A stretch of 64,000 nucleotides of DNA, taken from contig JACQVH010000157.1 in assembly GCA_016209895.1 (NCBI GenBank), positions 4,206 to 68,205 of the forward strand. Reading direction: 5' to 3'. The notes beneath the pieces are model-generated. The model was given only the letters and a program-made list of their open reading frames with translations, searched no databases and was not told the origin of the DNA. Position numbers and translations under genes: made by a program. Origin of the DNA: Candidatus Hydrogenedentota bacterium (lineage in GTDB: Bacteria > Hydrogenedentota > Hydrogenedentia > Hydrogenedentales > SLHB01). Below, one piece after another: positions 58,401 to 63,548 of the stretch (position 1 is the first letter of the stretch; the number at the start of each line of letters is the position of its first letter).

Positions 58401-58633
58401 TCGGCGTCGAGCCGGTATGGATGCAGTTGCATCATGACGAAGGCTCGGAAATCTACGTCAACGGCAAGTTGTTGCTGGAATTTGGTGGGTATCTCACCGA
58501 CTATCAGCGAATCGTATTAAAGCCCGAGCAGATAGCGCTGTTTCGCTCCGGTGGGAAAAACGTAATCGCCGTCCACTGTTCCCACACTGGTGGCGGACAG
58601 TTTATAGACTTGAGTCTTTCGACCGTGCAATGA
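55436..58633 (+). CDS. Glycoside hydrolase family 2 protein (1066 aa) with extra C-terminal domains
   Basis: GH2 N-terminal sugar-binding (WYERDVTIP...[26 protein letters not shown]), TIM-barrel region; signal peptide. Confidence 0.7.
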   Translation: [1065 protein letters not shown]

Positions 58634-59232
58634 CTCCGGTACACCCAGGCATACAAGCCGCGCGACGATTTGCGCGCGAGCACGACTCCGAGCCGGAGCA
58701 CGCGTTCCAGGTTTGTAAGACTAGTCTGCAACTCTTTGACGGTCTCGTTGAACGGCATGGTCTGGGTGCGGCAGAGCGCCGGCTACTGGAGGCCGCCGCC
58801 TTGCTTCATGACACCGGCTACGATGTGGATCCCGTCCGGCACCACAAGATTTCTCGAGACCTGATTGTGGACTCACGACTGGAAGGCTTCACCAAGGAGC
58901 AATTAGCCATCGTGGCCTGCGTGGCGCGATATCATCGCAAGGCTCATCCGGACCAGACGCATCGTGTTTACCGAGACCTGAGCCGACGGGCCCGCAGCGT
59001 TGTGGACCGTTTGGCCGCCATCCTGCGCGTGGGGGACGGCCTGGACCGTTCTCATTCGGCGTGCACGTGCGGAGTGCGCATCGAGCAGAAGGGAACCGCG
59101 CTCCGCCTGTTAGTACAGCAACGGCGTCCGAATCCCATTGACATCGAAGGCGCCCTCCGCAAGCGGCAATGGTTCGAGGAAGTGTTTAAGGTGCGCCTAG
59201 ATATCGTGCCAGTGCCGATGGAACGCGGTTGA
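58630..59232 (+). CDS. HD-domain protein resembling the C-terminal HD domain of Ppx/GppA phosphatases
   Basis: LLHDTGY...HH; 4-bp overlap with GH2 stop. Confidence 0.55.
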   Translation: MTPVHPGIQAARRFAREHDSEPEHAFQVCKTSLQLFDGLVERHGLGAAERRLLEAAALLHDTGYDVDPVRHHKISRDLIVDSRLEGFTKEQLAIVACVARYHRKAHPDQTHRVYRDLSRRARSVVDRLAAILRVGDGLDRSHSACTCGVRIEQKGTALRLLVQQRRPNPIDIEGALRKRQWFEEVFKVRLDIVPVPMERG

Positions 59233-59290
59233 TGCGGATGAAACGGATTTGCACGGATATTGGTATTTCATGAGAACTCGTAGTCGACGT

Positions 59291-59365
59291 CTCGTAATCG
59301 CGATTCGTAATCGTAATCGAGGTTCGTACTCGTGCTCGCAATCGGTGACTCGTAATCGTAACGAA
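59291..59365. repeat. Inverted copy of the CGATTACGA-rich element (TCGTAATCG units x~6), overlapping the start of the YiiX-like gene
   Basis: Reverse complement aligns with 2558-2612 (e.g. CGATT(A/G)CGAGCACG(C/A)G(C/T)ACGAA(T/C)CTCGATTA). Confidence 0.7.
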
Positions 59366-61700: not shown

Positions 61701-61703
61701 CCC

Positions 61704-62654
61704 ATGAACATGACAATGGATGCCGAAGCGCCCTGCACGCTGGCGGAAGAGTCCGCCTCGCGCCTACTCAAGATGCAAGTGCGCGCCATGCGGAAGCATC
61801 TGAAAACGGCGCGCACGCAGGACCTAGATGGCATCCACGACCTGCGGGTGGCTTCACGCCGACTGCGAGCGGTGCTGACCGAACATGCCGCGCTGTTTGA
61901 GAAGGCCGCTTTGAAACGATTTCAGCGTCGGACCCGGAGGCTTACGAATGCGTTGGGTAAGCCGCGCGAATTGGACTCGTTGCTGGTATTGCTCGAGAAG
62001 CTTCGCGACGGAGCGCGGGGCACGATGCGCGAAGCAATCCTATACGTCACCGGCTGGCTGAAGGCGCATCGGGATGCTGAGGCCGACCACGTTGCCGAGG
62101 GAGTCAAGTTGGTCGAATCGCCCAAGTTCGACAAATCTCTCATGGCGTTATTCGAAAGCCTGAACGCGGACAATGCCTGTTACATCGAAACGGCAGCGAG
62201 CAACCTCGACGAGCAGTTCCGGAATCTCGCGCTGCGGTTCGACCTGTGGCAAGGCAGTCACGCCGAAGAAGCGCTCCATAAGGTTCGGGTCCAACTCAAA
62301 AAATTGCGGTACTCCTGCGAAATATACGAACCGCTGTACGGCGCCGAGATGAAAGACTTCCTTGCGATGCTCCGGGAGGCGCAGGAGCATCTTGGCAATT
62401 GGAATGACTGTCGCGTGTTGCGTGGCTATCTGCAACAGGCCGCAGAAGGTGCGCCTGAAAAAGCTAAGAAGGGCATACCTAAAGTCTTGGCATCGTTGGA
62501 CCAGGCCAACGGGCAGCATTTGGAGAAGTTCAATGCGCAGGCCGCAACGCTCTTCGCCCCGGACCGGGTCGCAGATTTTCTCGCTTCGTTTAAGAGCATC
62601 AAACGCGTTTGCTGTCGAAAATCAGCGAAGGAAGACACGCCCGCGGAAGGCTGA
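61704..62654 (+). CDS. CHAD (conserved histidine alpha-helical domain) protein
   Basis: IHDLRVASRRLRAVL and later H/R-rich helices typical of CHAD; starts 4 nt after Tmk-like 2 stop. Confidence 0.6.
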   Translation: MNMTMDAEAPCTLAEESASRLLKMQVRAMRKHLKTARTQDLDGIHDLRVASRRLRAVLTEHAALFEKAALKRFQRRTRRLTNALGKPRELDSLLVLLEKLRDGARGTMREAILYVTGWLKAHRDAEADHVAEGVKLVESPKFDKSLMALFESLNADNACYIETAASNLDEQFRNLALRFDLWQGSHAEEALHKVRVQLKKLRYSCEIYEPLYGAEMKDFLAMLREAQEHLGNWNDCRVLRGYLQQAAEGAPEKAKKGIPKVLASLDQANGQHLEKFNAQAATLFAPDRVADFLASFKSIKRVCCRKSAKEDTPAEG

Positions 62655-62717
62655 GGGCTTTGTCATCCCTCGCCGGGCTCCATCGGGCAGTCTGTCATTC
62701 GGAGGACTACCAGCGTG

Positions 62718-63548
62718 ATGATTCTAGTTGGCCCGACCTTGACGCTTGCCGCCGCAGAAACGATCCTGACCGTCATGTCATTCAACATCCGCTATGGCAC
62801 CGCGCCCGACGGCGACAACGACTGGGAACACCGGAAAACCATCGTCGTCGAGATGCTTCGCGCCTACGGACCCGACGTCATCGGGACCCAGGAATGCCTG
62901 GAGTTTCAGACAGAGTATCTGGTTCAGCAGTTGCCGGAATACCGCTGGTTCGGCGTGGGCCGCAACGCCGACGGCGGCGACGAACACGCGGCCGTCCTTT
63001 ACAAGAAATCAGTCCTGAGTCCCCTCGAAACGGGCAACTTCTGGCTCTCCGAGACCCCCCATGTTCCCGGCACGAAGTCCTGGGGTTCGCACCACAACCG
63101 GATGGTGACTTGGGCTCGCTTCCGCCATCTGCAAACCGGCGAAACGTTTCATTGCTTCAACACGCACTTGGACAACGGGAGCGAACCGGCGCGCCAGAAC
63201 GGGGCCCGAATTCTGGCCGACTGGGTGCAACGGCTGCCACGCGACCTACCCCTTGTACTTACCGGAGACTTCAACGCGCCGGCGGAAGCCAGCGTTTCCT
63301 GGAACATCCTGACTGGCCAAGGATTGGCCGACGCCTGGCTGGTGGCCAAAGAGCGCGTGGGACCGGAAATCACTTTCGGCGGGTTCAAAGCACCCGAACG
63401 CACCGAAAAAGACCGCATTGACTGGGTTTTGGTACGCGGAGGGGTGATGGTGGAACGCTGTGAAACGAGTCTGTTTCAAATGAACGGGCGCTTTCCGTCC
63501 GACCACTATCCGGTCGTGGCCAAGCTGGTCTTGCATTCGCATGAATAG
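62718..63548 (+). CDS. Endonuclease/exonuclease/phosphatase (EEP) family protein
   Basis: MSFNIRYG...GTQE, LTGDFN, SDHYPV motifs. Confidence 0.7.
   Translation: MILVGPTLTLAAAETILTVMSFNIRYGTAPDGDNDWEHRKTIVVEMLRAYGPDVIGTQECLEFQTEYLVQQLPEYRWFGVGRNADGGDEHAAVLYKKSVLSPLETGNFWLSETPHVPGTKSWGSHHNRMVTWARFRHLQTGETFHCFNTHLDNGSEPARQNGARILADWVQRLPRDLPLVLTGDFNAPAEASVSWNILTGQGLADAWLVAKERVGPEITFGGFKAPERTEKDRIDWVLVRGGVMVERCETSLFQMNGRFPSDHYPVVAKLVLHSHE

Follow-up and report, generated by a model that had tools for sequence, protein, structure and literature searches.

We describe here a candidate bacterial polyphosphate kinase operon in a 64,000-nt stretch of DNA from the metagenome-assembled genome of a Candidatus Hydrogenedentota bacterium (assembly GCA_016209895.1, contig JACQVH010000157.1, positions 4,206−68,205 of the forward strand), referred to below as the window. 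Seven co-directional genes of the window follow one another in the order GH2−HD−C92−c−r−CHAD−EEP, in which GH2 encodes a glycoside hydrolase, HD an HD-domain protein, C92 a lipoprotein, EEP a phosphoesterase, and c and r two adjacent thymidylate-kinase-like proteins, Tmk-like 1 and Tmk-like 2. With good confidence, and on the strength of sequence comparisons, we read the core of this run (60266−62654) as a bacterial PPK3 operon, cPPK3−rPPK3−CHAD. The locus falls within the PPK3 family as delineated in a 2026 paper (JBC 2026, PMC12995831; preprint bioRxiv 10.1101/2024.08.28.610084) and not a new kind of system. An earlier annotation made from the sequence, referred to as the original prediction, had offered polyphosphate phosphotransfer as a plausible hypothesis, and PPK3 homology makes this the best reading; its remark that the cluster was not recognised as a described system is overtaken by the two publications.

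In Sulfolobus acidocaldarius, in which PPK3 was demonstrated biochemically, the PPK3 genes lie in the operon saci_2017 (sixA)−2018 (ppx)−2019 (cPPK3)−2020 (rPPK3)−2021 (CHAD) (PMC12995831; bioRxiv 10.1101/2024.08.28.610084). Saci_2019 makes polyphosphate (polyP) from ATP and, when supplied with ADP, ATP from polyP; Saci_2020 is inactive alone and activates ~6- to 10-fold in a 1:1 complex (α2β2); dTMP kinase activity was detected in neither protein and is present in a third, canonical paralog (PMC12995831). The same work located a positively charged cleft that is kept in cPPK3 and not in rPPK3, ascribed the inactivity of rPPK3 to loss of the arginine of the DRX motif, and found the ADP and polyP sites to be swapped relative to PPK2 (PMC12995831). 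A PPK3 genome would be expected to encode a canonical dTMP kinase elsewhere and usually to lack PPK1 and PPK2, and a PPK3 locus to lie among polyP genes (PPX, SixA/PhoE, CHAD, Nudix, Pst). The family was described as mainly crenarchaeal with “a few bacteria”, and bacterial homologs in similar neighbourhoods were predicted (PMC12995831). CHAD is known as a specific polyP-binding module (PMC6537752).

The window resembles the S. acidocaldarius locus in several respects. It likewise encodes c and then r as adjacent Tmk-fold genes followed by CHAD; its cPPK3 has an intact Walker A, DRY motif and basic lid; its rPPK3 has a Lys→Arg change in Walker A and lacks the basic residues specific to cPPK3; the dTMP-binding residues are gone from both subunits, and the locus is linked to PPX-derived sequence. 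The two loci differ in that the window host is bacterial (Hydrogenedentes) rather than archaeal, in that the window rPPK3 keeps the DRX arginine whereas the Sulfolobales protein reads DGY, and in the absence from the window of full-length ppx and sixA, in place of which a detached PPX C-terminal half is found. In addition, the window CHAD protein is longer (316 aa versus ~205 aa), 77 bp are shared by the c and r genes, and genes for exported GH2, C92 and EEP proteins are interspersed among the others.

Both Tmk-like proteins matched Pfam Thymidylate_kin (4.2e-21 for Tmk-like 1 and 2.6e-14 for Tmk-like 2), and the best solved match of both was ST1543 (STK_15430) of Sulfurisphaera tokodaii (PDB 2plr, 4nzy, 4rzx, 5h70), which was deposited as a dTMP kinase and is regarded now as a cPPK3 homolog. 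Tmk-like 1 scored 203 bits against ST1543 (2plr/5h70) versus at most 61 bits against canonical Tmks, and Tmk-like 2 scored 137 bits versus at most 48. Identity to ST1543 was ~47% for c and 38% for r, with N- and C-terminal extensions added in the window proteins; Tmk-like 2 bears the N-terminal RFYGxGxP extension typical of rPPK3. The AlphaFold2 (AF2) model of Tmk-like 2 (pLDDT 84.7) returned ST1543 as all of its top eight PDB matches, with TM scores of 0.89−0.91. In a neighbour-joining (NJ) tree, a distance method applied here with only two canonical outgroup sequences, the c and r proteins split from E. coli and S. aureus Tmk in 100 of 100 bootstraps, and the window cPPK3 fell into a c clade with Sulfolobales cPPK3 in 88 of 100. 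Canonical Tmks (E. coli 4tmk, S. aureus 2ccj) share with the window proteins the P-loop kinase fold, the DRY/DRH motif and the lid architecture, but the scores between them reached just 30−61 bits. These results agree with the earlier view that the pair is distinct from housekeeping tmk.

Membership of the pair in PPK2 was ruled out, since neither c nor r gave a Pfam match to PF03976 at E ≤ 0.01. PPK2 resembles PPK3 as a P-loop kinase that exchanges phosphate between polyP and nucleotides, with two-domain forms in which an inactive module aids the active one, and differs from it in that the PPK3 subunits are separate polypeptides. A search with Tmk-like 2 at E ≤ 1e-30 gave 155 family clusters at 50% identity, among them c−r fusions of ~450−700 aa. 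PPK3-type domains were also seen within longer proteins of 407−696 aa and one of 2575 aa (P0121, P0028, P0190, P0247, P0132, P0144, P0152 and P0226); P0121 and P0028 resemble c−r fusions, having two DRY motifs and, towards the N-terminus, a GK[ST]T Walker A, and P0190 and P0247 carry a C-terminal r-type GRST domain.

Comparison with reference S. aureus and E. coli Tmk sequences, both checked against PDB, showed the dTMP site to be gone from the pair. The seven S. aureus dTMP contacts R36, E37, F66, R70, S97, Y100 and Q101 correspond to E, W, H, F, A, a gap and R in the window cPPK3, and to S, L, Y, F, I, a gap and R in the window rPPK3. The contacts to dTMP phosphate, base and sugar are all replaced, and the canonical TREPGG reads TEWNSS in the window cPPK3. 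The replacement is family-wide, extending over 107 c and 94 r sequences, the window included.

The motifs of the two subunits diverge in a consistent way. The window cPPK3 has the Walker A GSGKST (K25), DRY (R102) and the basic residues K59, K63, R152 and K156, and the window rPPK3 has the Walker A GVGRTT, with arginine in place of lysine, and keeps DRY (SDRYTYT). Across the family, Walker A was GK[ST]T in 87 of 89 c and GR[ST]T in 84 of 87 r sequences, the remainder having merely failed the motif search; among the best 120 homologs of Tmk-like 2, arginine occupied the Walker A position in 116 and DRY was present in all 120. The positions of K59, K63, R152 and K156 were at least 90% basic in 107 c and at most 26% in 94 r sequences, and the basic lid residues were missing from the window rPPK3, a pattern that agrees with the cleft of the paper being kept in cPPK3 and not in rPPK3. 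Judged from the sequences, the Walker A Lys→Arg substitution is the change common to all rPPK3, those of Sulfolobales included. Such a substitution classically abolishes phosphotransfer in P-loop kinases. As a separate observation, one Sulfolobales rPPK3 (locus L088, 5611−6237) combines GSGRTA, again Lys→Arg, with DGY, and bacterial and Nitrososphaerales rPPK3 keep DRY.

The neighbourhood of the pair was surveyed in the first 80 species-representative loci retrieved with a cPPK3 profile, together with Sulfolobales metagenome contigs; loci were annotated by iterated profile searches, and several were also independently gene-called. The c→r pair was present in 78 of the 80 loci and in more than 12 phyla, including Hydrogenedentota, Acidobacteriota, Nitrospirota, Chloroflexota, Planctomycetota, Bacteroidota and Armatimonadota, with the same order in Sulfolobales. 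The two loci lacking the pair were L056, whose contig ends just past c, and L084, a 5.9-kb contig in which no r was detected. Within 5 kb of c, PPX was found in 50 of the 80 loci, CHAD in 33, a SixA-like gene in 32, PstB in 16 and PhoU in 12, counts that are lower bounds given that many contigs are short. CHAD stood directly after r in 7 of 7 Hydrogenedentes-like lineages and in the Sulfolobales operons. The association is not due to chance: the pair occurs in 78 of 80 loci, and CHAD follows it in all seven of these lineages. In the window itself, the polyP neighbours of the pair are CHAD, immediately downstream, and the PPX C-terminal half, 1 kb upstream. The tie between the Tmk pair, CHAD and the PPX-derived HD protein proposed earlier is conserved across genomes, and the outcome that would have spoken against it, an ordinary tmk amid unconserved neighbours, is the opposite of what we found.

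Among Hydrogenedentes-like genomes, the order was HD−c−r−CHAD−EEP in L113, HD−c−r−CHAD in both L108 and L114, C92−c−r−CHAD−EEP−HAD in L109, PP2C−c−r−CHAD in L111 and c−r−CHAD in L008. Two further loci carry no c−r: L115, with GH2−HD−C92−CHAD−EEP joined by 1−4 bp overlaps, and L116, with HD−EEP. Other arrangements were seen farther afield. The fullest bacterial PPK3 operon seen, in L005 (5251−12731) and L041 (Anaerolineae/Bellilinea), reads PstB−PhoU−c−r−CHAD−metallophosphoesterase−stand-alone PPX C-half−full-length PPX, and in L038, L059 and L068 (Phycisphaerae/Planctomycetota) the order is r−long PPX-like open reading frame (ORF; ~850−1080 codons as called)−c rather than c−r.

The HD protein (200 aa) proved to be a stand-alone PPX/GppA C-terminal half, in line with the resemblance to the Ppx/GppA C-terminal domain noted in the original prediction; Pfam, sequence matches to PDB and the AF2 fold agree on this. 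It matched Pfam Ppx-GppA_III at 5e-19 and scored 85 bits against residues 359−515 of D. radiodurans PPX. Its AF2 model (pLDDT 94.9) consists of a helical domain and a small α/β domain, and the best 28 PDB matches of the model were all PPX/GppA C-terminal halves (TMq 0.70−0.75 over ~190−200 columns), including the Y. pestis fragment 3rf0. In comparison with PPX/GppA proteins (E. coli 1u6z/2flo, D. radiodurans 8jgo, Y. pestis 3rf0), it superposes on domains III and IV and has no counterpart of ASKHA domains I and II, in which the phosphatase active site lies; Ppx-GppA_III and HD alone matched, and no Pfam match to the ASKHA domains (Ppx-GppA, PF02541) was found in it. A generic HD phosphohydrolase was rejected as an alternative identity, such enzymes giving E > 0.03 and TMq ≤ 0.5 versus E ≤ 3e-5 and TMq ≥ 0.70 for the PPX halves.

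Residues H24, H60, D61, H71, H72, K73, R100, H102, R103, H111, R133, D136, D139 and H142 of the HD protein show the same conservation as their counterparts in domain III of fused PPX, and its invariant residues are those of domain III in the full-length PPX encoded beside PPK3 in other phyla. The family consists of free-standing proteins of ~190−240 aa, mostly from Hydrogenedentes. The HD gene lies directly upstream of c−r−CHAD in L108, L113 and L114, where the genes farther upstream all differ (sulfatase; ClpS/ClpA; RpiB), and an HD-type gene is also found within Anaerolineae PPK3 operons, beside full PPX. From these relationships we conclude that the HD protein is likely to belong functionally with the polyP genes. 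The C-terminal half of E. coli PPX is credited with polyP binding and processivity.

The CHAD protein matched Pfam CHAD with 125.3 bits against a gathering threshold of 25.6, covering profile positions 3−228 of 228, and is a predicted polyP-binding or granule protein. The remaining three genes encode proteins of a different sort. EEP (Pfam Exo_endo_phos, 3.1e-22) had 3g6s, 3mpr and 4c1r as its best PDB matches (127−146 bits). It resembles the BT3783-type mannosyl-6-phosphatase (4c1r) and the uncharacterised Bacteroides proteins 3g6s and 3mpr in being, by its signal, also an exported enzyme, and differs from the BT3783 type in that the Hydrogenedentes gene sits after the CHAD gene. A signal-peptide-like N-terminal segment was present in all five EEP orthologs, and EEP followed CHAD in L109, L113 and L115 and the HD gene in L116. 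C92, a YiiX/YaeF-like permuted papain-fold protein (Pfam Peptidase_C92, 7.8e-23), carries the lipobox LLSAC, and lipoboxes were also present in its L109 and L115 orthologs; it adjoins the pair only in the window and L109, and in L115 lies between the HD gene and CHAD. GH2 has a signal-peptide-like N-terminus, and its stop codon overlaps the HD start (ATGA); an ortholog with 55% identity stood upstream of an HD gene only in L115. For all three proteins, each ortholog inspected carried the corresponding export signal. The HD, c, r and CHAD proteins showed no N-terminal export signals in translations judged by eye without a predictor.

In the 80 species loci from other phyla, the pair had neither EEP nor C92 as a neighbour, and no orthologous GH2 was found there either; a single GH2 match in L009, on the opposite strand and overlapping a PPX match, was not examined. 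We regard GH2, C92 and EEP as predicted exported, lineage-specific neighbours rather than parts of the polyP kinase. The grouping of all seven genes as one system in the original prediction is not borne out, in that these three are exported and accompany the pair only in Hydrogenedentes. A view that EEP and C92 are unique to the window was withdrawn, as Hydrogenedentes relatives have both, and the view that GH2 is unrelated was softened, as a GH2 ortholog immediately precedes the HD gene in L115. Two loci stand out in this connection. In L115 (2703−9171; GCA_963852985.1, a 6.6-Mb contig), CHAD and the PPX C-terminal half stay with the exported enzymes though the kinase pair is absent there. 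In L116 (6001−7521), the HD gene is followed after a 37-bp gap by EEP, with no c, r, CHAD or C92, and sulfatase and GH38 alpha-mannosidase genes come next.

The comparisons show homology, motif patterns, gene order and their conservation across genomes; from these we infer enzyme activity, subunit assembly, a role of the HD protein and a regulatory link to the exported enzymes as follows. By analogy with S. acidocaldarius, cPPK3 would carry the active site and catalyse the reversible reaction ATP + polyP(n) <-> ADP + polyP(n+1), probably favouring ATP regeneration, as the Sulfolobus enzyme favours ADP + polyP -> ATP. rPPK3, a degenerate and probably non-catalytic paralog, would form a hetero-oligomer with cPPK3 (α2β2 in Sulfolobus) and raise its activity, and the CHAD protein would bind the polyP polymer or granule. 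The HD protein would most likely act as a polyP-binding accessory or as the partner of a separately encoded catalytic PPX half, a role that is speculative, as is one in tethering polyP or regulating its turnover. GH2, C92 and EEP, which belong with the polyP genes to a syntenic block specific to Hydrogenedentes, may be co-regulated in phosphate scavenging and storage; the notion that they feed phosphate into the system is speculative as well.

Several observations weigh against reading the locus as a PPK3 operon. The published loss of the DRX arginine is not seen in the window rPPK3; DRY is kept in 80 of 94 r sequences, and the loss is confined to Sulfolobales-type r (13 of 94). Because most r keep DRY, the published cause of rPPK3 inactivity fails for most of the family, and because the window protein retains the DRX arginine, its inactivity would rest on the Walker A Lys→Arg change alone. 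We count the kept arginine as a difference that does not exclude the locus, since in this respect the window behaves like the majority of bacterial members in the clade defined in the paper. The r proteins were also not monophyletic in the NJ tree (12 of 100 bootstraps) and formed a basal grade; many Sulfolobales r sequences scored slightly higher on the c profile, leaving their profile assignment ambiguous. Because profile and tree support are thus ambiguous, the orthology of r is judged by where the gene lies and by the Walker A change that its members have in common. In addition, cPPK3 passes the cut-off of the NCBIfam dTMP-kinase equivalog TIGR00041 (86.8 vs 83.25) and rPPK3 falls below it (62.3 vs 83.25); evidently this model fails to separate PPK3 from Tmk. 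Unlike most PPK3 loci, the 64-kb window contains no full-length PPX, SixA-like or Pst/PhoU gene. No third Tmk-like ORF was found within these 64 kb. A literature search found no bacterial PPK3 with a biochemical test; activity here is inferred from the ~47% identity to the archaeal homolog.

In a broader and less likely reading, the seven genes would form one co-regulated phosphate-economy island of Hydrogenedentes, the exported GH2, EEP and C92 proteins freeing phosphate from phosphorylated glycans and the cytoplasmic PPK3, CHAD and PPX C-half proteins storing and mobilising polyP. Such an island would fit the tightly overlapping GH2−HD−C92−CHAD−EEP run of L115 with its orthologous GH2, the recurrence of EEP after CHAD or the HD gene, the mannosyl-6-phosphatase that is the nearest named structure of EEP, and, as a parallel, the presence of PstB/PhoU beside PPK3 in 12−16 of the 80 loci of other phyla. 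However, the window and L108, L109, L115 and L116 have unrelated flanking genes in common (Wzy_C, TPR-DUF7577, GAF histidine kinase and M28 peptidase), and because relatives share these too, common descent can explain much of the co-occurrence. The accessory genes are moreover patchy among the pair-containing lineages (EEP in 3 of 7, C92 in 2 of 7 and GH2 in 1 of 7), in the window a 216-nt gap with repeats lies between C92 and c, HD and EEP genes persist without c and r in L115 and L116, and no regulator site was identified; taken together, these points make a single seven-gene island doubtful. With similar reserve we raise a more specific conjecture, namely that the Hydrogenedentota PPK3/CHAD module may have exchanged PPX and SixA for the free-standing ~200-aa PPX C-half, whose conserved His, Asp and Arg residues are intact, and may be co-transcribed with the exported phosphoglycan-degrading GH2, EEP and C92 as an undescribed scavenging-and-storage island. 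The HD protein might then be a new polyP hydrolase or regulator, and rPPK3 would be silenced by the Walker A Lys→Arg change rather than by DRX loss.

It is also conceivable that, instead of a catalytic and a regulatory subunit, the pair consists of two working kinases, each with a substrate of its own, for instance in a two-step polyP- or ATP-driven NMP -> NDP -> NTP relay (nucleoside mono-, di- and triphosphates) as in PPK2 class III. Tmk-like 2 indeed keeps the DRY arginine, the glycine frame of Walker A and most of the ATP-site arginines (R91, R110, R118, R122 and R155, conserved at ≥84%), and arginine in place of the Walker lysine retains a positive charge. Yet the Lys→Arg change, classically fatal to phosphotransfer, is universal in r, including the Sulfolobus rPPK3 that was inactive in assays, and neither the lid residues R152 and K156 nor the K59/K63 positions, all kept in c, are preserved in r, which makes two active kinases improbable. 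Still less credible is that the pair are genuine (d)NMP kinases, either housekeeping tmk and a paralog or a nucleotide-modification or anti-phage module. Names and profiles speak for this, in that both proteins match Pfam Thymidylate_kin, Tmk-like 1 passes TIGR00041, public records say thymidylate kinase and ST1543 was deposited as “dTMP kinase”. Against it stand the replacement of all canonical dTMP-contacting residues, the absence of dTMP kinase activity from the Sulfolobus orthologs alongside its presence in a third, canonical paralog, and conserved neighbours that are polyP genes and not genes of nucleotide metabolism. PADLOC defence models gave no match to the HD, C92, CHAD or EEP proteins and weak matches only to c and r, the best c match spanning 16 residues around the P-loop. 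With matches at the P-loop level only, an anti-phage or nucleotide-modifying system was rejected, and the nucleotide-modifying module entertained in the original prediction is unsupported. The PPK3 operon cPPK3−rPPK3−CHAD is the reading that we retain.

The layout of the locus is given in the table below. All seven products exceeded the curated Pfam cut-offs for their called domains, so that the proposed domain calls hold, and the seven plus-strand ORFs lie where they had been placed. The 4-bp overlap of GH2 and HD was read directly in the sequence as ATGA, and CHAD does start 4 nt past the last base of Tmk-like 2. The minimal spacing claimed for the cluster does not hold throughout, the 216-nt gap (60050−60265) lying before Tmk-like 1. 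For cPPK3, the start at ATG 60266 is favoured by an AGGAG at 60254−60258, 7 nt upstream, and by an N-terminus that then fits the homologs.

Features of the putative PPK3 locus and its neighbours in the window
Feature	Position	Strand	Basis
GH2 glycoside hydrolase gene	55430-58633	+	ORF list; Pfam GH2 N-terminal, central and TIM-barrel domains
HD gene (stand-alone PPX/GppA C-terminal half)	58630-59232	+	Pfam Ppx-GppA_III/HD
C92 lipoprotein gene	ORF 59249-60049 opening at TTG; likely start ATG 59270	+	Pfam Peptidase_C92
Putative cPPK3 gene (Tmk-like 1)	ORF 60230-61033 opening at GTG; likely start ATG 60266	+	Pfam Thymidylate_kin
Putative rPPK3 gene (Tmk-like 2)	60957-61700	+	Pfam Thymidylate_kin
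CHAD-domain protein gene	61704-62654	+	Pfam CHAD
EEP-fold phosphoesterase gene	62715-63548	+	Pfam Exo_endo_phos; 60-nt gap after CHAD
Heptamer tandem repeats (GTCCCTG)x4 + (GTTTCCA)x3.6	60049-60108	no strand	Tandem Repeats Finder
cPPK3 3′ end and rPPK3 start, site of 1-nt deletion	60929-60960	+	Three-frame comparison with L113, L108, L111 and L008

The 77-bp overlap between Tmk-like 1 and Tmk-like 2 noted earlier is present, though peculiar to the window, relatives having a 4-bp ATGA; this was the c/r junction in 6 of 8 independently gene-called loci. In L113, L108, L111 and L008, c ends in “...KKMRPAGRKKA*”, with its TGA within the r start codon (ATGA). Between “aagatg” and ATGA the window has 28 nt where L111 has 29 nt, and the change falls in the last ~8 codons of Tmk-like 1. 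Because the window is 1 nt shorter, the ancestral stop is no longer read in frame and c extends over 25 codons of r, producing the 77-bp overlap. The 1-nt deletion arose either through recent mutation or through an error in the assembly, and it leaves the conserved core unaffected.

The gap between the C92 gene and cPPK3 bears two adjacent heptamer tandem repeats. They lie ~160 nt upstream of cPPK3, starting with the final nucleotide of the C92 stop codon; elsewhere in the window, the GGTTTCCAGTTTCC pattern was not found. A sigma-70 scan detected no promoter in this gap. Inspection by eye showed a TTGACA at 60164 and, 19 nt farther on, a TAGAGT, a spacing too wide to count as a promoter. No terminator-like site was found between the genes; the four candidates all lay within coding sequence and were fewer than in shuffled sequence. 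The 5′ end of the C92 ORF (59292−59361) contains tandem repeats, of a TCGTAA-type hexamer and of 13/19 nt. The Arg/Asn-rich stretch that they encode (…RNRNRG…RNRNEP) precedes the lipoprotein signal peptide and is absent from the L109 ortholog.

Farther upstream, at 45768−52056, the window carries Wzy_C (+), TPR-DUF7577 (−), thioesterase (−), GAF histidine kinase (−) and M28 peptidase (−) genes that are syntenic with the flanks of L108, L109, L115 and L116. This block is inverted relative to the relatives, and FG-GAP, dehydrogenase and GH2 genes lie between it and the locus. A 769-aa protein encoded at 43450−45759 gave a strong DUF6259 match (1.6e-47).

Public records name the two Tmk-like genes of the window “thymidylate kinase”, and the annotation of bacterial PPK3 under this name is probably a systematic error. 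As a result of the misnaming and of the TIGR00041 pass, metabolic reconstructions of uncultured bacteria will miss a polyP kinase and may count a false tmk. Recognition of the Walker A Lys→Arg change as a feature of all rPPK3 refines the published account of their inactivity. The occurrence of the c−r pair in at least 78 species-level genomes widens the published “mainly crenarchaeal” distribution, and bacteria of soil, sediment and wastewater lineages may commonly make polyP by way of PPK3, a point of relevance to phosphorus cycling and removal.

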